Source of the DNA: Vairimorpha necatrix
Taxonomy: Eukaryota
Length of the DNA stretch: 56,891 bases
Direction of reading: 5' to 3'
Assembly (NCBI GenBank): GCA_036630325.1
Contig: CP142732.1
Location: 1,178,001-1,234,891 of the forward strand
The notes under the pieces were generated by a model, which was not told the DNA's origin, did not search any database, and saw only the letters and a list, made by a program, of their open reading frames with translations. Within the stretch, counting starts at the first letter, position 1, and every line of letters starts with the position of its first letter. Of this stretch, positions 10,380 through 56,891 are shown piece by piece. Made by a program: the position numbers and the translations under genes.

Positions 10380-10779
10380 GACTTTTTTTTATGTTGATTA
10401 AATTATAAACAAAATGATTTCTAGTCGCTAAAGTTCATAAATTCTTTAAATTGTAAGTAAAATAGAGGCTTTAAGAATTTGATTATTTAAATTCCTAGAC
10501 TAGACATTTAATATAATTATTTGTCACAAATCTCTTCCCTATTTAAAAGTTATTTATTTTTTACAAATTTGATTAATGTTTTTATCAGTAAAAATATGCA
10601 TTTTAAAATATCAATCATAAAAAGTTTTCGGTAATACTCACATTTCATTATTTAGTCGATGTACTATAATAGTAATTTAATGCAAAAACTAATCTCTAAA
10701 AATTTTATATGTTCTTATATAGATATTGTATTAAAATTTATATATATAAATTTTACACCATTGTGATACATTTTTTCAA

Positions 10780-10852
10780 GGTGCCCTTATCACAGTGGTA
10801 GAATGCAATGCTTCCATTGAGCAATGGCTGGGTTCGATTCTCAGGGGCACCA
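10780..10852 (+). tRNA. tRNA-Gly(TCC)-like sequence, probably a pseudogene or SINE-type head
   Basis: Perfect acceptor stem GGTGCCC/GGGCACC, D-loop AGTGGTAG, T-arm CTGGG-TTCGATT-CTCAG, loop CT-TCC-AT. The anticodon and D stems do not pair properly. Confidence 0.7.
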
Positions 10853-10869
10853 AAATTGTTTCTGCTTTT

Positions 10870-11562
10870 TATGAAGCAGTTGGAACAACTCAGATGATGA
10901 AAATGTCCACGATAATCATTAAGTTGATTCAATGAAACTTGGGCGTGTCCAGCCACAACGGGATTAGCATCTAGTGTAGAAACGCACCTCAAAGCCAAAA
11001 AGAAGTATCACTCTTTGACTTAGAGATACATAAAAGTATCTAATGGGTACGGCCTAGTTGCTGCCCATGGCTGGTGCACTCTAGAGTGGGATCCTAGAGC
11101 TAAATAGGAGACTAGACGAAGTAGGGCAATAGAAGGTCTCGTGGACCCTATCATACAAGATTCTGTAACACGGTGGCCGAAACTAGTGGGAGACTGGTGT
11201 TCAACGCAGCCCAATAAAAACGCCGGGCTGGGGATGTGGTCGTGTAAGGGGCCGTGTGTGCAATACGGATGATTGTATTGACCTTTGAATCAGTACGATG
11301 ATGTCTCTCCTCGGGTTATATATAACCATGCCCGTTAAGTATATCCGCTGTGAGGTCACTCTGGACGCGATTTGAGGTATAAATAAAAAGTGCTCTCCTG
11401 GAGCCAAAGTCCAATGGATACGGCGGAGCTTGCTGCACCGGCAAGTTGTATGGGGGGAGTTTTAGTTAGTAAGAATCTCACAGTACCAGTTGGATGAGGA
11501 TCACAACTAAATCCTTTTGGTTTCTATGTAAGGTTTCTCCCTACTTCTTACTTGCAAGAAAA
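10870..11562 (+). ncRNA. Unidentified GC-rich structured non-coding island downstream of the tRNA-like head
   Basis: Sharp GC rise over the flanks, no credible ORF, many hairpins (ctctag/ctagag, actagt/actggt, cagccc/gggctg, cttgc/gcaag). Ends in an A-run. Confidence 0.4.
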
Positions 11563-12052
11563 AAAAATTTATGTGTGAAGTTTGTTTCTGTGGTATAATG
11601 GATCATACCACATGATTGTTAAAAACCAATTAATACTTAAACGCTGATGCTTCTTCGGAACGATCAGTTATGGTCGACTATCATTGGTCAGCCAAATCTT
11701 ATTTCTTTTATATTGGTTACCATGTATATAAATAAAGAAATTCCATGAACAACATGGTACAACATCAGAACGCAAACAAACACTCTTCCTTCTACAAATC
11801 AGATAAACAAAACTCTTTATAACAATAAACAATCCTTTCACTATAACTCTTTTAACTCCGGTTTTCACGGCTCCCCAAAATGTAGCATCATTGAATGCTT
11901 TCTTGCTACAGGCAAGCTCCCCGGTAAACACGCCAGTTTCAACATCCATCTTTTATTTCCAAGAATTTACAAAATAAATAACTAATTCGAATACATATAT
12001 CATAGTATATGGTCATAATATCAATTGAATTTGTTATAACTAGATAATAACC

Positions 12053-18979: not shown

Positions 18980-21187
18980 TTACAACATAATTGCTTGACT
19001 AGCAAAGAATCTTACTAAAATATTATGTAGAAGTGAACCAGACTCCTCATTTAAAAATTTCAAAACATAATCTTTATGGGTTTTTAATGAGATCAATTTC
19101 AATCTATTTTCGGTTTTCTTTTTCAAAATTAGATTATCGTGCAGTTCAGCATAAAATAAATTAATTATTGTTTTTGAAAAAAACAATTTTACTTTTTCTT
19201 TAATATTTTTTTTAAAGTTACTTTTTATTTCACCAGTAATTTTTTTTATTAATTTATTTTTATACTCTAATAGTGAGGACTCGTTTATTTGGACATTTTT
19301 GAATTTTTCTAAAAACATTGTTTTAATGGTCTCAATTCCTTTTTGTATATAATTGTTTTCTAGAGCATTTATTTTATTTTTATCAAATAATCTTTTTATA
19401 TTAACGTTTCTGGACTCATGTGTTATTTGATTTAATTTCTTTTCCAATAAAGAATCTTTAATTATACGCATCATTTTAGTTAACTCATGTTCTTTATTTT
19501 TTCTTTTTACTTCTAATTTTATATCGTCTCTAGTATTTTCTATCAACTTTTCTCTTAAAATTTTATTATTGTTCACTACGTCGTTTATATTGAGTTCAAA
19601 ACTGTTAATGACATCTTCGTCTGTGACTCTCTCAAGTTCACACCTATCAAAAAATTCAAGAAAGGATGTTTTCAATCCTGTAAATATCGATATTAGTTTA
19701 CCTGTTGTATTTAAAACTTCATTTTTATATGTTTTTAAATTAAAAATATGCAAACTCACCACTTCTTCCATGATTTCAAGCATACTAATTTTTTTTTCAA
19801 CATTACTTATTTCGAGCTCAGTTTTATTATTTTTGGACAATATTAGATTTCCTATATCTCTAAAAGTTTTATAAAATAGATCATTATCTTTATCATATTC
19901 ATCAATATATTTTTCTGTTATATTTAATAGTGCGATTTTTAATATAAAAAATTCGGTGTTATGTAAATTTGACATTTTTGCTAATATCGTATTAATAAGT
20001 CTGGTTTTTTGACTTGTACTATATTCATTTTTTAGCGTTATTATTGTTAATTCAGATTCTTCAATTATGTTATAATGTAAAAGTAAATGAGCCAGTAAAA
20101 TATTTGGGGCTGATTTGGGTGTTTTAAGAATCAAATCGATTAAATAAAACATTTTATCTTCATGACTTAATAGTTTAGACCACAGTATAACTGCTTTGAT
20201 GGCATTTTCATCAGTTATCATAGTGCCAACTTCTATTATTTTTCTAAAATCTATAAAACATTGCTTGTCTATCAAAAAATTTACATTTTTTCCATATTGT
20301 AAATAATAAAAATATACGCCAGCATTTTGAATAAAAATTATTTTATCCTGTTCTATTTCAATTCTAAAAAATACATATTCATATCTAATTTCAATACTAT
20401 TGAGTGAAATATTTATCGGTATATTATAAAAATATATCTGGAACAAATGATCGTATGGCATTTTATATAATTTGAGCAAAAGCTCAAGTATTTTTTCGTC
20501 ATATTTGGTTTCTAGTTTGATTTTTATATCATTAAAAAAATCAAAATTTTCAATACATAACCGAAATAAATATGAAAATTTTTTTATATTAAAACCAAAT
20601 ATAAAATAGTTTGGAATGTAATCATAATGTTTTATGGTATTTACATTAACGTTATTTTTACAAATATCGCGAATAACATCATCAAAATAATCAGATTCTA
20701 TACAAATATTTTCATAGTATATCTCCCACCCCTTTTTATTTATCTTCCTCTTACAATTTATGTTTTTTATAGTTTCTATAATATTTTTAAAAGTTATAGA
20801 ATAATCAAGACTGATAGAGTCGTTAAGTTGGCTCTCATTGTAAAATAATACTAAAGATGTGTTATTTGTCAAACTTACAAAGTCTTGTATTTTTTCTTCT
20901 ATTTTCGCTATAATTTCATTTAAAGTCTTGTTTTTACAATTTATAATAGAGTTTTTATGGTTGTTATTTTTAGTATCAAAAGAAAGTGTCACTTCTATTA
21001 AGATATTTCCATTCCCGATATTATAATGATCAGTATAAATACCAATACTCGCATAGCGTTTTGTATGATCAAATAACACATAGTCTCGACTTTCTATTTT
21101 GTCAGTGAGAATGTCTTTGATTTTATTATATAAAAACTGATTTGCTTTTGAAAGAACAAATAGAGTAAATATTTCCAAGATATACAT
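18980..21187 (-). CDS. Hypothetical 735-aa secreted, lineage-specific protein with a Lys/Glu-rich helical C-terminus
   Basis: Long intact ORF. N-terminal signal-peptide-like MYILEIFTLFVLSKA. CCT immediately before the ATG. No recognisable domain. Confidence 0.88.
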   Translation of the reverse strand: MYILEIFTLFVLSKANQFLYNKIKDILTDKIESRDYVLFDHTKRYASIGIYTDHYNIGNGNILIEVTLSFDTKNNNHKNSIINCKNKTLNEIIAKIEEKIQDFVSLTNNTSLVLFYNESQLNDSISLDYSITFKNIIETIKNINCKRKINKKGWEIYYENICIESDYFDDVIRDICKNNVNVNTIKHYDYIPNYFIFGFNIKKFSYLFRLCIENFDFFNDIKIKLETKYDEKILELLLKLYKMPYDHLFQIYFYNIPINISLNSIEIRYEYVFFRIEIEQDKIIFIQNAGVYFYYLQYGKNVNFLIDKQCFIDFRKIIEVGTMITDENAIKAVILWSKLLSHEDKMFYLIDLILKTPKSAPNILLAHLLLHYNIIEESELTIITLKNEYSTSQKTRLINTILAKMSNLHNTEFFILKIALLNITEKYIDEYDKDNDLFYKTFRDIGNLILSKNNKTELEISNVEKKISMLEIMEEVVSLHIFNLKTYKNEVLNTTGKLISIFTGLKTSFLEFFDRCELERVTDEDVINSFELNINDVVNNNKILREKLIENTRDDIKLEVKRKNKEHELTKMMRIIKDSLLEKKLNQITHESRNVNIKRLFDKNKINALENNYIQKGIETIKTMFLEKFKNVQINESSLLEYKNKLIKKITGEIKSNFKKNIKEKVKLFFSKTIINLFYAELHDNLILKKKTENRLKLISLKTHKDYVLKFLNEESGSLLHNILVRFFASQAIML

Positions 21188-21419
21188 AGGCTGTAAAAAA
21201 TCAAAAAATTTTTATAACATTTTTAAGTTAACCTTAAATAAATATTTAAAAAAAACATTTTTTTTTAGTATATTATAAAAATTAATTCTTTGTAAACATG
21301 TGGGCTTAATATATGGTTTTAAAACAGAAATTAATCTCTACTTATTCATTGGTTAAGTATAGTGACTAGATTTTACAAATCTTATACCACAAGACTTGAA
21401 ATTCCTAAAAAGGTAGAAC

Positions 21420-27633: not shown

Positions 27634-27670
27634 TTTAGTTTAGGTTATGTAGAGGTAGGTTAGGTAGGTA
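27634..27670 (+). repeat. Interstitial telomere-like tract
   Basis: ttagtttaggttatgtagaggtaggttaggtaggta: the same TAGG/TTAGG units and orientation as the terminal telomere. Confidence 0.6.
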
Positions 27671-28249
27671 TTTTTTATCTAGAAAAAGACCAATTCATAA
27701 CTTAAGAAACAATTAAAGTCCGCAAAACAAAGCAATGCAAAGTATTTTCTATTTATTTATATTATTGTATATTTAGATCATCTATTATGGTTTGTTAGGC
27801 CCTTTAAGTTTTTGAATAACCGATATTTGAAGAAGTTGTGTCAATAATTAACCATAATTTTTAATAGTGTAAATATAGAAATTCAACCTTTAAATTGTAA
27901 TTATAAAACAATAATATACTATATACACTATAAAGCTAAATTATTTAAAAAGCTTTAACATAACGTATTTTAACAACAAACAGAAACATACTGTATCTGA
28001 ATATTGGTTAATATATTCAAATCATTGAGGTACTAAGAAAAACAGAACTTATACTCTTTTTAAAAAATCAATTGTAAATATATATATGTATTTATAAGAA
28101 GGATAATGAACTTATAAGAAGAAGAAAATTAACATGTATAGTATATGTATGTTAAGTTAGAAGTATTGGTTTTCGTGATGATATTTTTAGAAGAAAAATA
28201 ATTTTAAATAATTTTTATAGTTAAGTAACTATAGCTTAATAAACATATA

Positions 28250-30790
28250 AGAAGGAAATAACAATGTCGTAAAATTAAGAACATCTCAGACTACATATAA
28301 ATCTAAATTATTGTTATATAAGTGACATTTGTGTATCTTTTTTTGTTTTTGAGCTATTTAAAAGATTAATATTTTTCATCTCCTTCTTGTATACATATAT
28401 AAGAAGACAAATCTCGAAAAATATGAAAAAAATAAGAACATCTAAGACTACATATAAATTCATATTATTGTTCTATAAATGACACTTGCGTATCTTTTTT
28501 TGTTTTTAAAGCTTTTATGAAATTTGATAATTTTTCATCTCCTTCTTGTATACATATATAAGAAGACAAATCTCGAAAAATATGAAAAAAACAAGAACAT
28601 CTAAGACTACATATAAATTCATATTATTGTTCTATAAATGACACTTGAGTATCTTTTTTTGTTTTTAAAGCTTTTATGAAATTTGATAATTTTTCATTTT
28701 CTTCTTGTATATATACAAGAAGACAAATCTAGAAAAATATGAAAAAATTAAGAACATCTAAGACTACATAAATATTCATATTATTTGTCAAGGGACAGCT
28801 CTCCAGTGGTCCTCAGATGGCCCTGGAGACTAGAGAATACTATTAAGTAGATATTCTCCTCCTTTGTATTATTCATGTTTTTGGCGGGAAAGTGTACCAG
28901 ATTTTCCCGCCCATAAACATAAAAGAAAATCATCCTCAGAAGGGTATGAAGATGAGAAAGATAAATAAACAATTTATTAGTAAACCTTCTTCACAGACTG
29001 TTGGACAAACAACAGTCCACATTATTGTTTTACAAGTACTTTTTGTGTATCTTTTTTTGTATCTTTTTTTGATTTTAAAGCATTTATGAAATTTGCCATT
29101 TTCCATCTCCTTCTTGTATATATGTATATAAGAAGACAAATCTTGAAAAATATGAAAAAATTAAGAACATCTAAGACTACATAAATATTCATATTATTGT
29201 TTTACAAGTACTTTTTGTGTATCTTTTTTTGATTTTAAAGCATTTATGAAATTTGCCATTTTCCATCTCCTTCTTGTATATATGTATATAAGAAGACAAA
29301 TCTTGAAAAATATGAAAAAATTAAGAACATCTAAGACTACATAAATATTCATATTATTGTTTTACAAGTACTTTTTGTGTATCTTTTTTTGATTTTAAAG
29401 CATTTATGAAATTTGCCATTTTCCATCTCCTTCTTGTATATATGTATATAAGAAGACAAATCTTGAAAAATATGAAAAAATTAAGAACATCTAAGACTAC
29501 ATAAATATTCATATTATTGTTTTACAAGTACTTTTTGTGTATCTTTTTTTGATTTTAAAGCATTTATGAAATTTGCCATTTTCCATCTCCTTCTTGTATA
29601 TATGTATATAAGAAGACAAATCTTGAAAAATATGAAAAAATTAAGAACATCTAAGACTACATAAATATTCATATTATTGTTTTACAAGTACTTTTTGTGT
29701 ATCTTTTTTTGATTTTAAAGCATTTATGAAATTTGCCATTTTCCATCTCCTTCTTGTATATATGTATATAAGAAGACAAATCTTGAAAAATATGAAAAAA
29801 TTAAGAACATCTAAGACTACATAAATATTCATATTATTGTTTTACAAGTACTTTTTGTGTATCTTTTTTTGATTTTAAAGCATTTATGAAATTTGCCATT
29901 TTCCATCTCCTTCTTGTATATATGTATATAAGAAGACAAATCTTGAAAAATATGAAAAAATTAAGAACATCTAAGACTACATAAATATTCATATTATTGT
30001 TTTACAAGTACTTTTTGTGTATCTTTTTTTGATTTTAAAGCATTTATGAAATTTGCCATTTTCCATCTCCTTCTTGTATATATGTATATAAGAAGACAAA
30101 TCTTGAAAAATATGAAAAAATTAAGAACATCTAAGACTACATAAATATTCATATTATTGTTTTACAAGTACTTTTTGTGTATCTTTTTTTGATTTTAAAG
30201 CATTTATGAAATTTGCCATTTTCCATCTCCTTCTTGTATATATGTATATAAGAAGACAAATCTTGAAAAATATGAAAAAATTAAGAACATCTAAGACTAC
30301 ATAAATATTCATATTATTGTTTTACAAGTACTTTTTGTGTATCTTTTTTTGATTTTAAAGCATTTATGAAATTTGCCATTTTCCATCTCCTTCTTGTATA
30401 TATGTATATAAGAAGACAAATCTTGAAAAATATGAAAAAATTAAGAACATCTAAGACTACATAAATATTCATATTATTGTTTTACAAGTACTTTTTGTGT
30501 ATCTTTTTTTGTATCTTTTTTTGATTTTAAAGCATTTATGAAATTTGCCATTTTCCATCTCCTTCTTGTATATATGTATATAAGAAGACAAATCTTGAAA
30601 AATATGAAAAAATTAAGAACATCTAAGACTACATATAAATTCATATTATAGTTTTACAAGTATTTTTTAACATTCTTTATTTGTTTTTTAAGCATTTATG
30701 AAATTTGCCATTTTTCCATCTCTTTCTTGCATATATATATATAAGAAGACAAATCTTGAAAAATATGAAAAAGATAAGAACATCTGAAAA
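28250..30790. repeat. Tandem satellite, ~160-bp unit, about 14-15 copies
   Basis: ttaagaacatctaagactac recurs at 29161, 29321, 29481, 29641, 29801, 29961, 30121, 30281 and 30441 (exact 160-bp period). Diverged ~158-bp units lie to the left and two more diverged units to the right. Confidence 0.95.
28786..29021. mobile_element. 236-bp insertion in the satellite (solo-LTR-like)
   Basis: TGT...ACA ends and 5-bp TSD TTATT (28781-28785, 29022-29026). Removing the insert and one TSD copy restores the satellite unit. Confidence 0.8.
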
Positions 30791-31332
30791 TGCATATAAT
30801 TGTACGATCTATGTGATAACTAGGAATCTGTGTATATATATATATGCGTACTTATATGTTTGAGTGATTTATCTTTTCTTTAAGTAAATCAAAGTATGTC
30901 TTTATTATGAAGATTTTAAAACAGAATGATTCTAAAAGTTTCTAGTGTAACCGTGGGCGTTTTACGATTTAACATTCTAACATAAGAATAAAATTAATAA
31001 ACGTATACTAATTGGTAAAAATTTTTATTATAATGATTAAATAATTTAAAAACTCTCAGAAACAATCTATATTTTAATTACAATTACATCTAAATATATA
31101 TACAAGTCTTTAAGTATCAGCAATATTTCTAATTTTTTTGGCTAATGGAAAGTCTCTGTGTATATTTGTACATGAGAGAGATAATGAACACAAAAAAGTG
31201 AAAATTGACATCTCATAAAAACTAGTAAAAATAACTTATGAAGTATATGTAACTAGATTGTGAAGTTTTTTTTATTCTAATTAAAACCTTTATTACATAC
31301 ATGATTTAATTTTTTTTTAAAGGGTATCTATC

Positions 31333-31372
<40 letters not shown>

Positions 31373-31474
31373 TACAAAATAAAAACTTTAAATTCAAGAA
31401 AAATATACATAAATATTAGTGCAGTGAAATTAATTGTATTGAAATAATAGAACATTCATATGGTAACAAATAAT

Positions 31475-32498
31475 GGCTAAAGTAAGCATTAGCTACAAAA
31501 AATCGATATAGGGTTTTTTTGTTTTTTTTTTGCCCCTTTTTTTAAAAAATGGAGGAAAGAAAATGATGAGGAAGGAACAAAAATAAAAACTAGAATAAAT
31601 ATTTTAATAAAGCTTCAAACACTGGAGTTGTAAAGTTTATTTGGATCATATATCTAAATAAATAAAGTTTAGCGCTATTCGATGATCAGTTTCTATTTGG
31701 TATAGAATGTTTTAGAGATCTCCAATTACCTTCTATGGTATTGTTATGTACTCCTGTATTCGGATTTCTAAATGTAATGTATTATTAACCATATGATGTT
31801 GGTTAAATATTGTATTTAAAGAATGATACGCTCTCCACATATCGCTATATATAATACTGCTTCTACTTACATATTTTAAAAGAAGTTCAGTAAGTGTTCT
31901 TTTGTCTCTTTTCTTAATATATACTACTATGATTCTACGTTGGATGGTACGTTCAACCATTCCAAAACACCAAAATTCTTTTACTAACTTCCCCTATTGT
32001 ATTTATTCTTCCCAATCTTAGTCTCATCAATTTCCACTATAGTATTATCGCCTCCAATAGTCCCTATACTAGATAAATACTTATCATAAAGACTCATTTC
32101 TTTTACTTTTTTTTAGCACGAAAGATATAGAAGGTTTAGTACAACCTAAAACTTGAGAAATGGACTTACGCGAATAACCTAGAATCAATATATTTAGTAT
32201 TTGTAATATTGTACTGTAATTTATCCTAGGATCCTGAAAGAAAGTTCCATTCCAAATTGAAATTGTGTTTTTACATGAGCTCCATGGACACCTAATAAGA
32301 CTTCTTTGCTCCCTCTTTGCTTCATTTTTTTGATTACAGACGCTACATATTTTATTTTGTTTCTTAATTATTAGATCATTATATATGATCTCCAATTCTT
32401 CTCTTGTCCGAATTCTTTCCTCCATTTTTAAAAAAAAGGGGCAAAAAAAAACAAAAAAACCCTATATCGATTTTTTGTAGCTAATGCTTACTTTAGCC
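31475..32498 (-). mobile_element. Merlin DNA transposon, near full length
   Basis: ~86-bp near-perfect TIRs starting GGCTAAAGTAAGC. 8-bp TSD caaataat/aaaataat (7 of 8 match). Encodes an IS1595-family DDE transposase. Confidence 0.92.
31590..32425 (-). pseudogene. Merlin/ISXO2-like (DDE_Tnp_IS1595) transposase, frameshifted
   Basis: N-terminal CSVC...CPWSSC zinc ribbon. Motifs IGGDNTIVEIDETKIGK, FGMVER, IYSDMWRAY, HHMVN and NTIEGNW. Confidence 0.92.
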
Positions 32499-33190
32499 AA
32501 AATAATATATAAGTATTTTTATGTAATTAAAATATTCAATTATATAATTATTGCCGGTATCAACACATAGAATAAATAGATTTTGAATTAAACAAATCAG
32601 AAAATAATTTGTGTATAAATTAATAACAAAGATTTTTTGAATTTAAGGATGAATTCTTATTATTGGAATACATCGAGGTACATTAGAAAGAATATAATCG
32701 TGGATAAAAAACAACCAATACCCCATTGGAGAACAATACTGTATAAAAATACAACACTTTAATATAATATAAAACGAAATTTAAATATCATGAAGATTTT
32801 ATATTTTATTCATTTATAACGAGAGAGCGATTATATAAATGTATCGAGAATAAACACAATTTCTATTAAGAATAATAGCAAAATCTCATAAGTACGTATG
32901 TATGAATTTAACATTGAAATTATTAAAAACTATAATTTTCATACAAAAATGTAGATATTATCGTAGCCAATCAAATACTGATCAATCATATTCTTACACA
33001 TTGGCAGATTTAATTGGCTACAAAAAGTATTTAGAAAAATTTCCAAAAGAGGGCATGGAAAATAAGAATAACGAAATTGACATATTTACAATAAATAACA
33101 TCTTATAAAATCATGTAATTATATTATATAATTGTATAATTTTTGCATAATTTAATGAGATTTTCTAAAAAAATAAGCTTGAATAAGAAT

Positions 33191-34905: not shown

Positions 34906-36592
34906 TGACTGTCTTTGATTTGATATTGTATAATCCTCTATTTATAGTAGTATTAATTTCACAAAGTTTATTGTCATTCCAAACTTTCTTATCTCTTTTA
35001 TGCACCAATCCAATCTTTGATTTATCATTGCCCCTCAACAAATTTTTTTTTTAATATTTTAGGAGGGAAATTTAAAATAAATAAAATATAGAAAAGAGCG
35101 TAGATTTTGAATTTAAAGGAATTAATAGCAAAAATAAAACAAATTTTTGTTATAAATTAATTAAAAATATACAATCAAAAACTAAACAAATATGTTAATT
35201 ACTCTTTATTCAATGATCTTTATTTGAAATTTATTATTAATTTTTCTTTGTCTACAGAGTAACAACTCAATTAAAAAGATGACCAGATGGTATTTTTTGA
35301 AATACAATACGGCCTTTAAATTTTTTAAATTCTCTTGACATTTTTGAAGAAATTCAAAATTTAATTAAATTTTTACTAAAAATCAATCGTAATGTCAAAA
35401 TAAAATATTTTTTCCATAATAATAGTTACAATTGTAAAATTTTAAAAGTTTAGGAATTCATTATTTCTAAACTATATTATTATTGTGTACATATATATTT
35501 ATATTTTAAAATCTTATTTGATTCTGCAGAAATCTAAACATTTCTGGAAGCATACATTCAGTCTTATGTGATGAAGAAAACTCCAGAGTCCATTCTTTAG
35601 AACGACGAACAAGATACGATAAAGATTATGCAGAAGAAGAAGAAGTGGTTAGAGCTGTAAGCGCACTAGCGAATATGGCGACTGTTGAACAAGCTATGTC
35701 GGTATAGGAGAATGAAGCTTAAATTTGGAGTTGAAAAACATTAATAATTCCACAGAAACCAAAGTCTATGAAGAGACGAATCTAGTAAGCGATACCGAGG
35801 AAAACTGTACTAATCTAACTTTAATGATAAATTAAGCTAATAAATTTTTTATATGTTGTCACCACTAAACACAAACATTGGCGTACTTACGAATGTAGTA
35901 ACGACCATGCAACTTTCGTTTGATTGTGTGACCCAACTTGACATGCCATCCGAAACGGTTGACATATTTTTGACATCTGTCCATGTGTTGTAGTAATGTA
36001 CATCACAGTATCTAAGAAAAACAAAATCATAATAAAGAATATTAGTTAAATCACATAAATATGTTTTTATTATTTTGTAGTTGAAATTCTTAAAAGAATG
36101 TAGTTCATATATAGTTGTAGCAGATCAAATACATATTAATCATATTCTTCAAATGACAGTTTTAACTTGTTAAAAAAAATTTACTTTAGAGGGTATGAAA
36201 AATAAGAATAACAAAATTGCCAGATATAATGGAGAAATTGAAATACGATGCCAGTAAATCTTAAAATTTGCGATCACATATGAAAGTATTTTGTATATAA
36301 TATAGGATATATACTTGTTTTTGCCGTGTAAAATCTTTAAATTTTTTAGTTACTAAGTATATATATATTAGAAAGGTATATTCGGATCAAAGAAAATCTT
36401 ATATAATTTTATTTTATATAAGAAAGCATATAACTAATATTGTAAATTATTCTATTATTAGGTTAAATCGCTTAATGATCTTTCAATCTGACTAATTTGA
36501 AATTTTTCTTTATGTATAGAAAGAAAACAAAAATTAAAGGAAGTTGAAAATATAATTAGTTTTTTTAAATGATAACAAAAATTAAAATAAAT

Positions 36593-36660
36593 GTGCTTGG
36601 CATAATGGTTGCACCTTGATTCGGGATATCGAAGGTCCAAAGTTCGATTCCCAGTGGGAA
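36593..36660 (+). pseudogene. tRNA-derived remnant with Pol III A and B boxes
   Basis: A box TGGCATAATGG, stem TTGAT/ATCGA around TCGGGAT, and B-box-like AGTTCGATTCC. The T stem and acceptor stem do not pair. Confidence 0.5.
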
Positions 36661-37399
36661 TAAAATTTAAATTTATATTCTAAATATAAAGATATCTATT
36701 CGCGGACATACAGACGTCTCTAAATATAATATTTCAAAATCGATAGACTAAACAAATATTATGAAAATAATTCTTGAAATGAATTGATTAGTAATTTCTG
36801 AAATATATTCACACTTTAAATTCTTATTACATATAATTTGTTTTTCTGTGTTTCAAAATACCATGGCTGTATATTCTATAGGGATCTAAAAGCCGATTAT
36901 GGCACTCTTGATGTAGAAATTTATGAAGTTTGTTATTATACAAACAAGATATAATATAAGATGGAGATCTGTTCAATTATTTCATTAGTGACAAAGAAGT
37001 TTAATAAGTTTGCTTTTAGTGTTCTGTGTAAGAGAAAGAGCTATCTGAGATCTAGATGTTTTATATATATAATATATACACTAGATTAAAACGATAAATC
37101 TATACTGAGTTTTTAAAATATTTATTTTAATTTATTTATTGATTTGATGAGCGATTAGAGGCTTGTATATAAAAAAATTCTTACCAAATCAAATCCCAAT
37201 GGTTACGTCGGAGATAGTGCAGCGCAAGTATTCGGTAATAGTTAAGTGAGTAGAAATACCTTATTTTCATTGGATTGTTAACCCAATTTCTTTTATGTTT
37301 ATGTATAATATTTCATCTTCCCTTCTACTCGCCAAGAATATGAAATTTTAAAGTAAATATAGGCTATAAGTCAAAATTTTGTTTTTTGAATTTCCAAAT

Positions 37400-37785
37400 T
37401 TTTAATTTTTCAAGGATGACAAGTATATATATTCAAACACCAAGAATAAGAATAAAATCATGAAAAAAAATTATCTAAAATGACAAATTTTGATTTTCTT
37501 TTTTCATGATAAAAAGAATATATACACATTTATAAAAAATAAGAAGTTGATAAAAATCATGAAAAAATATTTGTCTAAAGTGTCATAATTTTGAATTTTA
37601 GAGTTTTGAAATTTTCATTTTATAATGAAGAAAATTCTATATACATATATATATACAATAAGACAGAAAAGAAAATCATGGAAAAATAATTAGTCTAAAA
37701 TGTCATAATTTTAAAATTAGATTTTTTCAAAGACAACAAGTATATATACAATGTAATAAGATGAAGAAGAAAATCATGATAATTA
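37400..37785. repeat. Degenerate tandem repeat, ~100-120-bp unit, about 4 copies
   Basis: aaaatcatg recurs near 37455, 37553, 37672 and 37770; the first three are followed by tctaaa-tg(t)ca-aatttt. Confidence 0.65.
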
Positions 37786-40700: not shown

Positions 40701-42314
40701 CATAAAACTATCTATGTAGAAATTTTTAAGTTAATGAATTTGAATATATATTTTGCATAGCAATATATATATAGAGTGGATAAAAAAATATTATGTTCAA
40801 AACAAAATAACAAACTCTTTTTCTAACAGAAACATAATCAAGAGTGTAATATAAGGAAAGTTTACATATAGAGTATTAAAAAAAAAAAATGTTCTATATA
40901 AATTAGAGATATATTATATAAAAAATAATAAGTAATTCTGTATAAAGTAGCTTTTAATATTAAATTTTAAAATTATATTTTTTGTAGTAGACAATGAATA
41001 TGTAGAACATTTTGTGAATATTTATGAGATATAAAATGATATCCAGTCCTTTATCTTGAAGATTAACGAAACTAATAAAAAAAACATGGTAACCAAGCCT
41101 TTAAAACAATGACTTTCTAATTTCAGGTTTTTTGAAAAAACTTTTTTGTTCCCCGCACGACGAAGTTTATTTTTGAAATCATTAAAAAATTTTATGTAAC
41201 AATGAGCTTCAAAAAATACAAAAATAGAACTTTACTATTATTGAACAACTTCACTTACAACTAGAAATAAAATTGATGTTTACATCAACCGTTTTTCAAA
41301 AAAAAAGGCTAGTTTTTTAAAAAAACATTACTGATGCAGTGTTTAATGAAATTTCTTAATGGTGAATTTACGACTAGAAGGATTTATCTAGGAGCATCTT
41401 CCTTTCTTTTATACAATTTTATATCTTCATTTGACAAAATTCGAATAACTTGTGGTCAAAGAAGTTAAAAAAAAAAGGATCGAATTTTAGTAATGTTAGA
41501 AGCCACGTAAAAGATTTATGTAATGATAAGTGACATTCGTGGAAGTTAATTATGTACATTGTTTAGCAATTTAGAAATTATTTAAATCTTAGCTTCTTAT
41601 CAGCAGTGAATCTTGACGATGTAATATAAATATAGATAAAAACATATGTTCTGAAACGAATAAATATTACAATATGTACTTTCTGTAAAGAGTATGAGAA
41701 TTTAAATTAGTGTTTATCATTAAACTACTACACTAAACGTATGAGGTTAAATTTATTGTTAACAAAATTCTATGTAATGGTTCTCTCTTTTCTTACATGA
41801 AAAAAAAAAAATTAAGAAGAGAGTAATATTATGAGAAAAGAAGAGAATGTCTAGAAATAATATCTAATGAAGGATCATTAACATTAACGAAAAATTTATA
41901 AAAATTGAAAAGCGAATTCATTAGATAAGAAATTTAGCATATAATAAAATTTGAAAGTTTGTGCATACGGTAATTGATTGCAATTACATATCTGTCATAT
42001 AAAGTATATATTGACACTGATTCAGACAAAGTTTAATATCAGCTTTAAAAGTCTTTATTAGTAAACATTCAACTTTAGATAATATAATAGTAATAAATAA
42101 ATAGTGTATTATCATATAAACTGTTTACAGTTATAATTAAGATGAATCAGTAGAACAAAATATTTTAAATGTAAAGTCATAAATAATTAGAACATTATAT
42201 TAACCATATTAAAGACTTATATTCTATTATAATGAATAATTAAATGAGTTTAATAAAATAATATATTATAAAAACGTATATATGATATAAATTTCTATAA
42301 AGTATGAGAATGAT

Positions 42315-43215: not shown

Positions 43216-45192
43216 TGTGGTATTATTTACCACATTATTATATTTTCCTCCAAATGAATTTTCTAGAATTTATTTTTCTATAAATATTTTTTTTTTTATT
43301 TTTACCCTCACCAAAATATGTCAAGAAGAACAGAGGAGTCTAGAAATCAGCAGTATCAATCAATGCATCCCCAGAAGATGGAAGATAAAGCCCAAGGAGG
43401 CAGATTTAATTATACAACTTTAATTATAATAAAACTTTAATACCCGGGAGAAGCATTATAGAATGCTATCTGAGGAGCAGCCAACTCCCGGGTAATACCT
43501 CAATGAGCTCATTAGTATTAGAAAAAAGTAATAATACTGAGAAACAAAATAATGATGAAGCATATACTACATTTGATAAAACCATAGAAGGAATTACAAT
43601 AGTGTTTAAAGAAAAAATTGAAAAATGTAAAACGAGACTGCACCATAAAGCATCTCGAGCTGTTTAAAGAGCAGGAACGGCCAATAAATGGACTGATGAG
43701 CAGATGGGACTCATCTACCATTCTTTGATTGAAGATTCTAAGGTGAAAGATAAGCTAAATAAGAAAAGCTTCAAAAAACAAAAAAAAGAACTACTAGAAT
43801 TTAGATATCCAAAAAATGATGTAGCTTTATTATTAACAGAGATGGAAACTGTAAAACAGGTAAATTTTAGAAGTATAGCAGATTACTATGAGAAAATAGA
43901 GTCGATGATTGAAATATACGGACTATCAACGAACCTATCGAAAAAGGAATTTGATGTTAGAATGAAACAGATTTTTGAGAGAGGATTAGGCAGATCAACT
44001 GCCATTGAAGTTTTAAAATCAGGAATGAAAAACAAGGGAATAAACAAGCTATTAAAATATATACAAGATCTGGAAGAAATGATTATTTATCAGGCGAAAC
44101 TGGAAGGGACACGATATCGCAATTTATATCTAAGAAAGAGCTTTATGAAAGACCTGAAGAAACAGGAAGATACTTTATAAGTGATAAGTGGTGCTCTATA
44201 CATCAAGCAAGATCACATGATACACGAGATTGTCGTCTACGAAAACCAAAAGCCAACGATAGAGAAATAAAAAAAAGAAGAAAAATCGTTAATAATAAAA
44301 AAAATTCCTAACGATGAATTGGATATAAAACATAAAAAACCCGACTGCCTATTAATTTAGAAACAAAAAGAAAATAAAATCATCAATAAACAGAAATGTA
44401 TAAATGAAAGAATAAATAATATGACTTTGTATTAAAAGGAATTTGAATAAAAATAGACAATCTTCCAGCTAAAGTCTTAACTAATATAGTTGACTTGTGA
44501 AAAGGACATGGAATACGATACCATCAGATGATATATATTCAAGAATTATTAAAATAAATAACAAAGAAAGAAGCAAGCCTCCTGATAAAATTAAAGATAA
44601 GCATCAACAGGTAAAAAATTTGGCAACATCTAAATATGATAGTTATTAGAATAAACTAAATTAAATCTTGGAACTTTCAGAAAACATTGCCTCAAAAATA
44701 AAATGCAGCAGATGCCATTTAGCATATGTAGATATGGAGTAAACTGTGAATATGAGAAGCTCAAATATGATAAGTTGAACTCATACCTTGATTTGAGGTT
44801 TAAAATATCCAACCCAGCTATTACTAGGAAAAGGCGGAAAGAACTATTTGATGATTTCGGAGGAATCCGTATTCTAATTTGCTGACCCTTTAGAGGAGGT
44901 AGTATGTGGTATTATTTACCACATTATTATATTTTCCTCCAAATGAATTTTCTAGAATTTATTTTTCTATAAATATTTTTTTTTTTATTTTTACCCCCAC
45001 CAAAATATGTCAAGAAGAACAGAGGAGTCTAGAAATCATCAGTATCAATCACTGCATCCCCAGAAGAGGGGAAGATAAAGCCCAAGGAGGCTAATTTAAT
45101 AATACAACTTTAATAATAATAAAACTTTAATACCCGGGAGAAGCATTATCGAATGATATCTGAGGAGCAGCCAACTCCCGGGTAATACCTCA
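43216..45192 (+). mobile_element. Non-autonomous gag-only LTR retrotransposon
   Basis: Near-identical LTRs at 43216-43502 and 44905-45192 (TGTGGTATTA...TAATACCTCA). 5-bp TSD GAATT. Purine tract agaggaggtagta before the 3' LTR. Gag-like ORF 43704-44180 followed by WCSIHQARSHDTRDC. No RT or integrase motifs seen. Confidence 0.9.
43318..44300 (+). pseudogene. Disrupted gag-like gene
   Basis: CCC motif and ATG at 43318 inside the LTR. ANKWTDEQMGLIY...SIADYYEKIE capsid-like region. CxxHxxxxHxxxxC knuckle near 44190-44235. Confidence 0.7.
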
Positions 45193-51478: not shown

Positions 51479-54400
51479 TGTTAAAGTTAAACCTCCTATT
51501 AAATTAATGTATAACATGGCAAACACAAAAGACGAAAGGGTAACAAGTGAGAGCCGTGTTCAAGAAAACAGAAAATTTCTGAAAGAAGCACTCATTAGAA
51601 TGCAGAAGATGTAAAATTGTGACAACGAAGCAGGCGAAACAAGTAAGTACTGAACTTCGAAATTTTATTGTTGATAAAAATTTAATAAGTATGATAAATT
51701 GGAATGATATTATTGATGAAATAGATACATTAGTTGTTGAAGAGAAAGAGAATAAGAACAAGGAAAAAATAAGGAGTAGAGAACTAGAAGATATGGTAGA
51801 GGTTATGAAAGAAAAATCAAAAAGAATATTAAAGGATAACTGACTAGGACTGTAGCAGTGCCAGGAAGAAACTTTCAATATCAAAGACGAGAAGAAAAAC
51901 ATTGTTTTATATGTGGAAGAATTATACATATAGCTAGAGGTTGTATGGAGCGTAAAGGAAGACAGGAAGAGAATAATAAATATAAAAGTGTTAAGTGAAT
52001 TGGCATTCGTGATAATAGTAAAATGAAAATATTAAAAGGAAATGATTTTAAATTGAGACTACCAGTGGAGGTAGAAAGAGAGAACTCAAGAAACAGTTTT
52101 TATGTAAAAAAAACGAAACAAGATAAAAGGGGTAAATATTAATAAATTAGAAGAATTGAGAGGAAAATTTCCAGAAGTATTAGGAAATGACGAAGAGTAA
52201 ATAAAATACTTAACAGGGGGAAAATATTCTATCAAAACAAGGAGTGAAAGTAGTTATAAAAAGACAAAATATTTCTTATAATTCGAGAAAAGTTAGAAAA
52301 GTATATTAATTTAAAAGAAAGTAGAGGTATTTTCAGAAGGACAAAGAGCGAATGAAGAAGCCCAATAAGTACTATAGAAAAACTAAATGGTGAAGTACAA
52401 TTGAGAAGCAATTTGATGGCTTCAAACGAACTGGTTTAAAAAGATCCGTAAGAATTGCCATTGATTAGAGACATTATTAATGCAACGCTAGGTTCTAAAG
52501 TATTTATGGTTATAGACCTAAAGGAAGGATTCTATCATATAGAAATTGAGAAAGTTCAAATGCATAAGACGGCTTTTGAGATAAATGTTAGAGTTTACGA
52601 ATGGAATAGCATGGTAATGAGATTTAAAAATGCCCTCATATTATGCAAAAAGTGATGAACGGAGTTTTAGATAAGTTTAGAAGCAAGAGTGTTGAGGTGT
52701 ACATGGATGATATTATTATTCATGCAAGAGATAGTAATATACACGAAAATTTATTAAAACAAGTAATTCGAAAATTTAACGAATTGTTATTAAAAGAAAC
52801 TTAAAAAAAATACAATATGAAGGAGAAGTAAAACTACTTGGAGTATCAATTAACGGAGAAGACATTACACCTAACAAAATTAAAAAGCAAGAGACATTAA
52901 AATTCAGAAGGCCCAACAACATAAAAGATCTTAGAAGATTTGGGGGACTGGCAGGCTGGTTAAGAGATTTTATTTCTCATTATGCTTATCGGTCAGCGCT
53001 TCTTACAGAAGAACTAAAATAAGATGTTAAATGGGGATGGTCCGAAGATATGGAAAAAGCTTTTATGGATATCAAAGAGTGGTTTATAGGATGTGAAAAA
53101 ATTAAAAACAGAGGATAGTTATAAAATATTTAGAGTAAGAACGGATGCATGCGATACGGGAATTTGAGCCATACTTCTGCAAGAAGACAAAGAAAATAGG
53201 TGGATTCCGATACAATGGGCATAAAAAATGATAACACTAACAGATAAAAAGTATACGATAGTGAAAAAGAATTGTTGGCAGCGATTTTTGGAATAATGAA
53301 ATTTAATCAGATTTGTGAGGACGAAATTAGATTAATGACAGAACATTAAGCACTGGCCGAGATTAGAAACAACCCGTTTTTTAATAATAACAGAATTAAT
53401 AGATGAATAGAATATTTACAGAGTTCGATTTTACTATTGAATATGTAAAAGGAGAATTGATCACGTATGTGGATGCTCTTAGTAGACTATTTGAAAATAA
53501 CGAAGTAATTGAAAAAGGCGAAAGATAGAAACAGACCTAAAAACAGATGAAAGTGAAAGAAATAATCCGCATGTTAAAAGAGAAGGTAAAAAATATTTGA
53601 AGTTCTCAACAGGAGAAATTAAAGAAATACTACACGAAGAACCATGATAGACAAAAATTCGTAGAGTTCATGAGGAATTAAAGGATCGAGAAGTTAAAGA
53701 TTCACATTATAAGATTTAACAAAAACGATACCGGTCAGGTATGAAGGACCAGATGACCACAACACAAAAAAATTGTGAAGTATGTAGCATTAATAACAGA
53801 AACAAGACCTGAGGTTGCAATTTTGTAATAACATTCAAGAAATTAGAAAAAGTAGTTTAGAAGTAATGGATATTGCAGAAAAAGAAAGATACGTGCTATA
53901 AGGGATTGACTACTTCGAGATAAAGAGTATGGGGCGTAAAGATAAAAAATAAGGGAAGTGATGTTATTACGAAAATTTTAGAAAAATGGATAAAGGAAGA
54001 TGGATTGCCAGATGAATATATTACGGATAACTGTAAGGAATTTGTCAGAGGGAAGTTTGTAACTTGGTGTAAATAAAACGGAATTATGCAATGGAAAGTA
54101 TGTTTAGATCCTCATAGGAGTAATGGAAGAATAGAGCGATGTATTTGAACAATAAGGGAATCGATGATCAAATAAAAAGAAGGAAACACGGAGGAAAAAC
54201 TAGAACAAGCTGTAAGAACCTATAATAACACTCTACACACAGCGATAAAATGTACACAAATGGAAGCATGGAAGGACCAAGGAGAAGAAGTTTTTATGAA
54301 AATTGATGAAAAGGGTGTGTATGCAGGAAATTTTAAACAAAGGTATAGAGAAAAATTTGAAGTAGATCACGCTGTGAGAATCCAAGATAAAAAACTTGGG

Positions 54401-54627
54401 TAAATAGATGAAATGTACGAAAGGAAGATTTACAAATGTTGATAAAAGAATGGGAAAGTGTGAGAATGATTCTTAATTTGTAAGTACTGATAGCAAAAGA
54501 TACATTAAGAAAGACATTATGACCTAGAATTTTATAAAAATGATAAATTAGAAGCTTGTAACCTGAGACTACCCGTTTGAAGGAGAAATGTTAGGGTTGA
54601 ACTTTCCTATTAAATAAATGTATAACA
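51479..54627 (+). mobile_element. Compact Ty3/Gypsy LTR retrotransposon with 38/39-bp LTRs (degenerate copy)
   Basis: Terminal direct repeats TGTTAAAGTTAAACCTCCTATTAAATTAATGTATAACA (51479-51516) and TGTTAGGGTTGAACTTTCCTATTAAATAAATGTATAACA (54589-54627). TSD TATAA on both sides. PPT gaaggagaaa. Gag knuckle CFICGRIIHIARGC, RT (IDLKEGFYH, KTAF, VYMDDI), RNase H (RTDAC), integrase (CEVC, ITDN, SNGRIER). Confidence 0.92.
51516..54560 (+). pseudogene. gag-pol polyprotein with many stops and frameshifts (gag, RT, RNase H, integrase)
   Basis: ATG at 51516 overlaps the last base of the 5' LTR. Domain order RT-RH-IN is that of Ty3/Gypsy. Confidence 0.9.
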
Positions 54628-54789
54628 TATAATCATTAATCTTAAAAAAAAATAATTGAATAAAAAAAATAGTTAGATAAATTTTTATTAAAAATTTTCT
54701 TTTTTTATTTATTTTAGTTACATATTGATTTAACTGATAAATTTTTTAAACAAAAGATTGAGGAAGTTTTGAAGGTAAAAGCTTACGTG

Positions 54790-56891
54790 TTAGTTAGGTT
54801 AGGTAGGTAGGTAGGTTAGGTAGGTTAGGTAGGTAGGTTAGGTAGGTTAGGTAGGTTAGGTAGGTTAGGTAGGTAGTAGGTTAGGTAGGTTAGGTAGGTT
54901 AGGTAGGTTAGGTAGGTTAGAGGTTAGGTTAGGTTAGGTAGGTAGGTAGGTTAGGTAGGTTAGGTAGGTTAGGTTAGGTAGGTTAGGTAGGTAGGTTAGG
55001 TAGGTAGGTTAGGTAGGGTAGGTTAGGTAGGTTAGGTAGGTTAGGTAGGTTAGGTTAGGTAGGTTAGGTAGGTAGGTAGGTAGGGTAGGTAGGTTAGGTT
55101 AGGTAGGTAGTAGGTTAGGTAGGTAGGTAAGGTAGGTTAGGTAGGTAGGGTAGGTAGGTTAGGTTAGGTAGGTAGTAGGGTTAGGTAGGTTAGGTTAGGT
55201 AGGTTAGGTAGGTAGGTTAGGTAGGTAGGTAGGTTAGGTAGGTTAGGTAGGTAGGTAGGTTAGGTAGGTTAGGTAGGTAGGTTAGGTAGGTAGGTTAGGT
55301 AGGTTAGGTTAGGTTAGGTTAGGTTAGGTAGGTTAGGTAGGTAGGTTAGGTAGGTTAGGTTAGGTTAGGTTAGGTAGGTTAGGTTAGGTAGGTTAGGTTA
55401 GGTAGGTAGGTTAGGTAGGGTAGGTTAGGTAGGTAGGTAGGTAGGTAGGTAGGTTAGGTAGGTAGGTTAGGTTAGGTAGGTAGGTTAGGTAGGTAGGTAG
55501 GTAGGTAGGTAGGTTAGGTTAGGTAGGTTAGGTAGGTTAGGTAGGTTAGGTAGGTTAGGTAGGTTAGGTAGGTTAGGTAGGTTAGGTAGGTAGGTAGGTA
55601 GGTTAGGTAGGTTAGGTAGGTAGGTAGGTTAGGTTAGGTAGGTTAGGTAGGTTAGGTAGGTTAGGTAGGTTAGGTAGGTTAGGTAGGTAGGTTAGGTTAG
55701 GTAGGTTAGGTAGGTTAGGTTAGGTAGGTAGGTTAGGTAGGTTAGGTAGGTTAGGTTAGGTTAGGTAGGTTAGGTAGGTTAGGTAGGTTAGGTAGGTAGG
55801 TAGGTTAGGTTAGGTAGGTTAGGTAGGTTAGGTAGGTAGGTTAGGTAGGTAGGTAGGTAGGTTAGGTAGGTTAGGTAGGTAGGTAGGTAGGTTAGGTAGG
55901 TAGGTTAGGTAGGTTAGGTAGGTTAGGTAGGTAGGTTAGGTAGGTAGGTTAGGTAGGTTAGGTAGGTTAGGTAGGTTAGGTAGGTTAGGTAGGTTAGGTA
56001 GGTTAGGTAGGTAGGTAGGTTAGGTAGGTAGGTTAGGTAGGTAGGTAGGTAGGTAGGTTAGGTAGGTAGGTTAGGTAGGTAGGTAGGTAGGTAGGTAGGT
56101 TAGGTAGGTTAGGTAGGTAGGTTAGGTAGGTAGGTTAGGTAGGTTAGGTTAGGTTAGGTAGGTTAGGTAGGTTAGGTAGGTAGGTTAGGTAGGTTAGGTA
56201 GGTAGGTAGGTTAGGTAGGTTAGGTAGGTAGGTAGGTTAGGTAGGTAGGTAGGTAGGTAGGTTAGGTAGGTAGGTTAGGTTAGGTAGGTTAGGTAGGTTA
56301 GGTAGGTAGGTTAGGTAGGTAGGTAGGTAGGTTAGGTAGGTAGGTAGGTTAGGTAGGTTAGGTTAGGTAGGTAGGTTAGGTAGGTTAGGTTAGGTAGGTA
56401 GGTTAGGTTAGGTAGGTAGGTAGGTTAGGTTAGGTAGGTTAGGTAGGTTAGGTAGGTAGGTTAGGTAGGTAGGTTAGGTAGGTTAGGTAGGTTAGGTAGG
56501 TTAGGTTAGGTAGGTTAGGTAGGTAGGTTAGGTAGGTTAGGTAGGTAGGTTAGGTAGGTAGGTAGGTAGGTAGGTTAGGTAGGTTAGGTAGGTTAGGTAG
56601 GTAGGTTAGGTAGGTGGTAGGTAGGTTAGGTTAGGTAGGTAGGTTAGGTAGGTAGGTTAGGTAGGTTAGGTTAGGTTAGGTAGGTTAGGTAGGTAGGTTA
56701 GGTAGGTTAGGTAGGTAGGTAGGTTAGGTAGGTTAGGTAGGTAGGTAGGTAGGTTAGGTAGGTTAGGTAGGTTAGGTAGGTTAGGTAGGTTAGGTAGGTA
56801 GGTAGGTTAGGTAGGTTAGGTAGGTAGGTTAGGTAGGTAGGTTAGGTAGGTTAGGTAGGTTAGGTAGGTAGGTAGGTTAGGTAGGTAGGTA
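54790..56891 (+). repeat. Telomere: irregular composite (TAGG)/(TTAGG) array
   Basis: About 2.1 kb of G-rich-strand repeats running to the end of the window. Confidence 0.97.

Follow-up and report, generated by a model that had tools for sequence, protein, structure and literature searches.

tRNA-derived SINEs have a head that descends from a tRNA and carries A and B boxes at tRNA spacing, they are non-coding and shorter than 1 kb, and their 3' part is a conserved domain with an A-run behind it; they occur in more than one copy, dispersed among unrelated flanks, and heads and bodies can differ between families that have a tail in common. Among fungi, tRNA-derived SINEs, including long ones, occur in powdery mildews and in Magnaporthe. 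tRNA-like sequences also lead or adjoin other kinds of unit. In the dicistronic tRNA-snoRNA genes of plants, and in the yeast Pol III genes RPR1 and SNR52 with their tRNA-like leader promoters, a tRNA or tRNA-like part that contains a promoter lies upstream of a non-coding RNA and on its strand; in mascRNA/MEN-beta (RF01684), which is a vertebrate family, a long RNA has the tRNA-like element at its 3' end; and in Dictyostelium TRE/DGLT and yeast Ty3, retroelement sequence is found beside tRNA-like Pol III elements of a compact, AT-rich genome.

In this study, we revisited a GC-rich unit in a 56,891-nt stretch of Vairimorpha necatrix DNA (called the window here, with positions counted from its first letter). 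The unit agrees with tRNA-derived SINEs in each of the features named above; however, it is long (~780 nt), contains internal T4-T5 runs, has no significant TSDs, is present in two copies in the window and has no partner LINE there, and unlike most SINE heads its own head is still fully paired in acceptor stem and T arm. We suggest, at a probability of roughly 55%, that positions 10780-11567 (copy A) are one copy of a non-autonomous, non-coding tRNA-derived SINE-type retroposon.

By its sequence, the window reads as a transposon-rich subtelomere of a Vairimorpha-like microsporidian, with few genes and many transposon remnants. A composition count over the 56,891 nt gives a GC content of 0.245 without the telomere; the published V. 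necatrix genome is described as tetraploid, with 28.3% GC, ~50% repeats and TAACC telomere repeats (PMC10759460, accessible sections). The window is closed by a 2.1 kb telomere array (54790-56891) of 273 TAGG and 191 TTAGG units, 5 TAGGG units and a few others. This is an irregular TAGG/TTAGG mix and not pure TTAGG, the motif published in the same sections being a 5-mer, and it suggests that telomerase often skips, or slips on, one template base. A telomere-like stretch also occurs internally (27636-27669, ...GGTAGGTTAGGTAGGT), and ~600 bp further on lies a tandem satellite (28233-30898) with a unit of 157-160 bp, eight copies of which are 100% identical; together they may represent a former chromosome end or a telomere-associated repeat. 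Near the telomere, a frameshifted RVT_1 remnant (52452-52801, + strand) is followed downstream by a frameshifted rve remnant (53924-54073, + strand), and the two form a decayed Ty3/gypsy-like pol oriented toward the chromosome end. They sit in a purine-rich block (51500-54700) that adjoins the telomere and has a GC skew of +0.29 to +0.45 and an AT skew of up to +0.37. As this reverse transcriptase adjoins an integrase, it is therefore of the LTR type, and we rejected it as a partner LINE of the GC-rich unit.

Further remnants are spread over the remainder of the window. An rve integrase remnant (947-1390, - strand, found with Pfam) lies in an element at 201-2034 that is bounded by 66-nt inverted repeats (201-266 and 1969-2034); just inside both repeats there is a tRNA 3'-half-like piece (1936-1975 on the + strand, 311-275 on the - strand) with a B box and an acceptor-like end, followed by T6-T7. 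In total, four tRNA-like fragments of the window bear a B box, and a real tRNA gene is absent. A Merlin/IS1595-type DDE transposase remnant (31736-31993, - strand, E 2.6e-10) is enclosed by inverted repeats at 31474-31548 and 32425-32499 (75 nt, 96% complementary), and the GC-rich unit itself has a MITE-like or foldback structure on one side (9548-9768/10152-10372, 221-nt arms, 87% complementary, 383-nt spacer) and another on the other side (12053-12109/12646-12702, 57-nt arms, 91% complementary, 536 nt apart). Direct repeats of ~290 nt (43216-43502 and 44905-45192, 95-98% identical) surround ORFs of 170 and 100 aa, for which a Pfam search gave zero matches, and the region 43216-45192 looks like a small LTR-bounded element. 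A 743-aa ORF (18980-21211, - strand) without a Pfam domain belongs to a multi-copy uncharacterised protein family; its six named relatives, 27-51% identical, are all uncharacterised V. necatrix proteins and, judged by their locus-tag numbers, are located mostly near chromosome ends. On the ground of these relatives, we assign the window to a subtelomere of V. necatrix or of a closely related species.

The head of copy A (10780-10852, + strand) was read directly and checked pair by pair. All 7 pairs of the acceptor stem are Watson-Crick, and the T stem is fully paired (5/5, one G-U) around the loop TTCGATT; the anticodon stem has 0/5 Watson-Crick and 2/5 wobble pairs around the loop CTTCCAT, which contains the anticodon TCC. 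The original prediction had described a tRNA-Gly(TCC)-like head with intact acceptor and T arms and a broken anticodon stem, which is what we find, and the D stem, paired at 2 of 4 positions, is broken too. An A-box-like TATCACAGTGG at 10788-10798 and a B-box-like GGTTCGATTCT at 10831-10841 each show one mismatch to what we take to be the consensus motifs of tRNA-type Pol III promoters. The head scored 16.4 bits with the Rfam tRNA model (threshold 29), and ARAGORN called no tRNA in the whole window; a functional tRNA gene at 10780-10852 was rejected on these two results and the lack of Watson-Crick pairs in the anticodon stem. From these features, we consider the head to be derived from a tRNA-Gly(UCC) and non-functional as a tRNA. 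Its best Rfam model was the mascRNA tRNA-like one, again below threshold (22.9 bits, E 0.069, gathering threshold 42.5). With mascRNA/MEN-beta it has in common the acceptor stem, the T arm and, where a normal anticodon arm would stand, a short hairpin (CCATTG/CAATGG) as its substitute; however, the RF01684 family is vertebrate, and its tRNA-like element is a 3' end, whereas that of copy A lies at the 5' end. The predicted T5 run is present at 10866-10870 (+ strand), 14 nt 3' of the tRNA-like end and on the loop side of a hairpin (CTGCTT/AAGCAG), and would likely act as a Pol III stop. A 12-nt inverted repeat, ACCATTGTGATA (10757-10768) and TATCACAGTGGT (10788-10799), with 11 of 12 positions complementary, pairs sequence immediately 5' of the unit with the head's A-box region and gave a sub-threshold miRNA-like hairpin match.

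The head is followed by a body (10853-11366, + strand), by a conserved 3' domain, or tail (11367-11558, + strand), which is common to a second copy and includes the blocks GCGATTTGAGG and CCAATGGATACGGCGGAG, and by a closing A9 run (11559-11567, + strand), a few bases beyond which the homology to the second copy ends; copy A thus measures 788 nt. With a GC content of 0.42-0.54 per 100 nt, the body contains no ORF, matches no family and has only a weak colinear likeness to the second copy. Several further points of the original prediction were borne out here. The unit is far more GC-rich than its flanks, with 0.453 (10780-11562) against a window background of 0.245 without the telomere, and 11001-11500 (GC 0.476) is the highest non-telomeric 500-nt bin of the window. 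It also ends in an A-run as had been stated, although the end then assigned, 11562, cuts the A9 five bases short. No credible ORF is present: the longest stop-to-stop frames measure 84-89 aa and are all on the minus strand, as expected from the plus-strand skew of G over C and A over T. The three longest gave zero Pfam matches, a word-indexed protein search with the 89-aa frame among proteins of near and longer lengths returned no homologue, and an HMMER protein search with the 86-aa frame returned three weak matches, all to repeat proteins matched in multiple stretches, which we judged spurious. With no Pfam match and no credible protein relative in the tested frames, a protein-coding or HGT origin of copy A was rejected. 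A solo-LTR reading, with TG...CA ends and a 5-bp TSD, was rejected by eye, the flanks not matching.

Using a sensitive self-search of the window and then nhmmer, we found a second copy (copy B) at ~36590-37347, ~758 nt long, on the same strand as copy A and 25.8 kb away. Its head (36590-36665, + strand) is a decayed tRNA-like segment with an anticodon arm unlike that of copy A, in which an A-box-like TGGCATAATGG (36598-36608) and a B-box-like AGTTCGATTCC (36641-36651), each with one mismatch to the same presumed consensus, keep the 43-nt spacing of copy A. The body (36666-37150, + strand) is AT-rich and not independently alignable to that of copy A. The conserved tail and a degenerate A-rich end, AGAATATGAAA, make up the remainder (37151-37347, + strand), and the A-rich end aligns with the A-run of copy A. 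Copy B has a GC content of 27.7%, and in the aligned columns G or C in copy A is matched by A or T in copy B at 194 positions and the reverse is found at 70.

With copy B as the query against 113,782 bases, that is both strands of the window, the sole significant non-self match was copy A 11008-11569 (E 9.7e-10), the next best having an E value of 0.79. The tail of copy B alone matched copy A with 29.2 bits (E 2.2e-10), and the alignment of the two tails (11367-11562 and 37151-37345) reached a z-score of 21, with none of 1000 shuffles as good. When 1.5 kb of flank was added on each side, the homology was confined to 11008-11575 in copy A and 36809-37353 in copy B, and the flanks scored below their own shuffles. 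With the tails masked, no alignment of the two bodies was found; a full-length comparison with the real body scored 31.6 bits against 24.0-28.3 bits for 30 shuffled bodies, a gain of ~3-8 bits, which hints weakly that the bodies may be colinear. Outside the boxes, 148 of 1000 shuffles were as alike as the two heads. The anticodon arms of the heads differ completely, and the heads may therefore descend from different tRNAs. At up to one mismatch, the two strands of the window hold three A-box and four B-box matches, and only two pairs in which a B box follows an A box by 30-60 nt, namely 10788/10831 and 36598/36641, both at 43 nt. These pairs sit 579 nt (copy A) and 553 nt (copy B) upstream of the tails and on their strand. 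We estimate at ~5e-4 the probability of an unrelated box pair landing, on the correct strand, within an interval of 60 nt, and we therefore regard head and tail as parts of one unit of 788 nt in copy A and ~758 nt in copy B. What may be part of a third tail, truncated on its 5' side and with A12 behind it, lies at 41768-41825 (+ strand); its tail-like piece (41768-41813) is marginal, with 1 of 40 shuffles as good, and was left out of the copy count.

The original prediction had called the unit structured, had pointed to a possible multi-way junction and had read its GC-richness as selection on RNA structure, and these claims are not supported by comparison with shuffled sequences. The MFE of the whole of copy A has a z-score of -1.72 on the plus strand, where 2 of 20 shuffles fold as well, and of -1.84 on the minus strand, so that the antisense folds equally well; for the GC-rich core (10900-11500, + strand) the value is -1.2 (5/40 shuffles as good), and for the conserved tail of copy A it is -0.45 (65/200). 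The folding stability of copy B, with its low GC content, likewise does not exceed that of shuffles. Between the two copies, a covariation analysis gave a shared helix of 7 bp with two double changes, which column shuffles matched in 83 of 200 cases for its length and in 37 of 200 for the double changes. The proposed junction is one among many alternative local pairings, with no test in its support. In separate MFE folds of both copies, the first bases of the 3' domain do pair with the last bases before the A-run. In agreement with the prediction that no known RNA family is represented, Rfam gave no match at the gathering threshold in the whole window (among others for RNase P/MRP, SRP, snRNA, snoRNA, ribozymes and rRNA), and at E values of up to 10 the regions 10600-11800 and 36400-37500 gave chance-level sub-threshold matches only. 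A telomerase RNA, which would need a template complementary to the TAGG/TTAGG telomere repeat, was rejected, as neither copy contains CCTAACCTACC within two mismatches or, on either strand, a 7- or 8-mer of the C-strand repeat. The GC-rich island is specific to one copy and gives no evidence of a structured RNA gene, which removes it as a false lead in that direction. As to the GC-rich body of copy A, the copy may be young and derive from a GC-rich source, or sequence may have been captured inside the element.

According to the SINE-type reading, the unit would be built from three modules: a head with tRNA-Gly(UCC) as its ancestor, in which A and B boxes are retained as an internal Pol III promoter, a body of ~510 nt whose GC-richness would be incidental to copy A, and a conserved 3' domain of ~200 nt that closes in an A-run. 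Copy B would repeat these modules with a different tRNA-like head, an AT-rich body and the same tail. The element RNA would be transcribed from the head, by Pol III or by read-through, an autonomous non-LTR element would supply the reverse transcriptase that recognizes the conserved tail and A-run, and the RNA would then be copied into new sites by target-primed reverse transcription. A pattern in which boxes and tail are kept and the body is lost cannot have arisen by neutral decay of a single insertion. Such modularity is what one expects of SINE families. It agrees with source copies having been selected both for being transcribed and for being recognized by a reverse transcriptase, and also with two SINE families that have a LINE-derived tail in common.

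Much of what defines a SINE is found at both loci. Both have a head with an A and a B box, the sole such pairs in the window, both are short and non-coding (788 and 758 nt, with frames of 84-89 aa in copy A), and both have an A-rich 3' end, A9 in copy A and the degenerate AGAATATGAAA in copy B. As to dispersion, 56.9 kb contain two clear copies with non-homologous flanks and one marginal truncated tail, and the surroundings, a subtelomere rich in transposon remnants, are in keeping with a mobile element. Copy A has no TSD, as had been predicted: among 300 shuffled flank pairs, 93 gave an equally good match. At copy B, a possible 11-nt repeat, TTAAAATAAAT (36582-36592) and TTAAAGTAAAT (37348-37358), matches at 10 of 11 positions and abuts both ends; however, in the generic test 118 of 300 shuffles were as good, and the candidate extends into the start of the tRNA-like head. 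The bodies are not free of terminators in these copies, and a master copy may differ in this respect. Copy A has three T-runs (T5 at 10866, T4 at 11460 and T4 at 11515; 2.9 expected from shuffles), and copy B has seven of T4 or longer (8.8 expected). Because T-runs inside the copies are not depleted, full-length Pol III transcripts of copies A and B are doubtful. The T5 after the head of copy A would probably stop Pol III, and because it sits just 3' of the head copy A may be dead; more generally, the copies may be dead, or full-length RNA may be made in another way. In the window we found neither a partner LINE nor the tail in any further sequence. A non-LTR partner is nevertheless plausible, because ~1.4% of the Nosema bombycis genome is labelled as LINE (PMC3614468, accessible part) and the accessible annotation supplement for V. 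necatrix (PMC10759460) lists a protein that PANTHER names 'non-LTR retroelement reverse transcriptase-like' and adjacent reverse transcriptase/endonuclease genes.

Of the three options named in the original prediction, the long tRNA-derived SINE fits best, with a second head-plus-tail copy 25.8 kb away in its favour, although TSDs and a depletion of T-runs were not seen. The 5' region of a non-LTR element does not fit, because the unit ends in an A-run, and for the dicistronic tRNA-ncRNA, which is conceivable, no positive evidence was found. Another reading is that the two copies are a tRNA-like-led non-coding RNA gene and its diverged paralogue, with the head as Pol III promoter, RNase P/Z signal or both and the ~200-nt 3' domain as the functional part. 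We consider this quite unlikely. It would account for the retention of promoter boxes and 3' domain while the remainder diverged, the perfect acceptor stem and T arm of copy A are the recognition elements of RNase P/Z, among Rfam models the head most resembles, below threshold, the tRNA-like element of mascRNA (22.9 bits, E 0.069), and the MFE folds of both copies join the start of the 3' domain to its end before the A-run. However, no Rfam family is found in the unit, there is no excess folding stability in the whole unit, the core or the tail, and covariation is at the level of chance (83/200 and 37/200 shuffles). In the plant tRNA-snoRNA genes and in RPR1 and SNR52, the arrangement of a tRNA-like part with a promoter upstream and on the same strand is the same, but here the downstream part is ~700 nt long and has neither an RNA family nor a structural signal, a T5 run stands directly 3' of the head, between it and the remainder, the unit ends in a genomic A-run instead of a T-run, and the location is a subtelomeric transposon graveyard. 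That copies A and B would even represent a microsporidian family of such genes, with Pol III promoter and RNase P/Z site in the head, a functional ~200-nt 3' domain and the GC-rich copy A as the active gene, we hold to be very improbable; were it true, a reduced eukaryote would have yielded both an RNA class and a way of arranging gene expression that are new.

The heads and tails could also be neighbours and not parts of one transcript, if retroelement 3' ends or a short non-autonomous element had integrated at a set distance downstream of two tRNA genes or pseudogenes, as in Dictyostelium TRE/DGLT and yeast Ty3. This is an unlikely course of events, in our view, even though the heads differ through the anticodon arm and are not significantly alike outside the boxes (148/1000 shuffles), copy A has its own T5 terminator behind the head like a normal tRNA gene, robust homology is limited to the last ~200 nt, and two more tRNA 3'-half-like pieces with T-runs (1936-1975, 311-275) adjoin the inverted repeats of another element. 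The distances speak against it: from the tRNA-like end to the robust tail there are 514 nt in copy A and 485 nt in copy B. Known tRNA-gene targeting distances range from tens to ~150 nt, much shorter than the ~500 nt to the robustly homologous part here. In addition, neither of the supposed targets is a functional tRNA gene, both being tRNA-like sequences, and the near-equal gaps, together with a real body that scores above 30 of 30 shuffled bodies, are a better fit to one colinear unit. A non-mobile relic would be a long shot, whether an old segmental duplication had left two remnants or a foreign GC-rich body (from host, virus or bacterium) had come to lie between a tRNA pseudogene and an older repeat, forming a chimera. 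Subtelomeres are frequently duplicated, and the body of copy A, in which GC reaches 54% per 100 nt, departs strongly in composition from its surroundings and is, taken alone, unalignable to copy B; however, the flanks are non-homologous, the homology stops sharply at the A-run and the two units are nearly equal in length (788 and 758 nt). No match to the unit was found with blastn, in its distant mode, against plasmids and phages, a 23-nt word from the core had 0 exact matches in a scan of prokaryote genomes, a 22-nt word from the head had none in viral contigs, and there was no protein-level match in the tested frames. A tail-motif word did occur at 12 viral-contig and 57 metagenome-contig loci; however, all 69 fit a profile of copies A and B only around the seeded word, the best with an E value of 0.009 and 9.6 bits, and they were rejected as chance matches. 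The lack of an outside homologue in these scans also weighs against the SINE-type reading.

The SINE-type retroposon that we favour can be compared with what is recorded for other microsporidia. In the accessible part of PMC3614468 (Table 2), 0.18% of the Nosema bombycis genome is labelled SINE by RepeatMasker, and the accessible repeat tally of Microsporidia sp. MB contains no SINEs (PMC11585130). A word search for SINEs in the available text of PMC4202319, PMC10759460, PMC11592040 and PMC12449221 found no mention, and a full-text literature search, as far as the texts were accessible, yielded RepeatMasker tallies only and no described microsporidian SINE. Those supplements of PMC10759460 that were searched hold protein annotations and no repeat library, and the RepeatModeler library of its authors may already hold the family of copies A and B as 'unknown'.

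The element proposed here would be of an ordinary type, in a phylum for which the accessible literature that was searched holds no description of one. If the SINE reading holds, a microsporidian would have a tRNA-derived SINE-like family with a concrete description and defined boundaries; this would point to an active or recently active non-LTR partner and help to classify part of the ~50% repeat fraction of such genomes.
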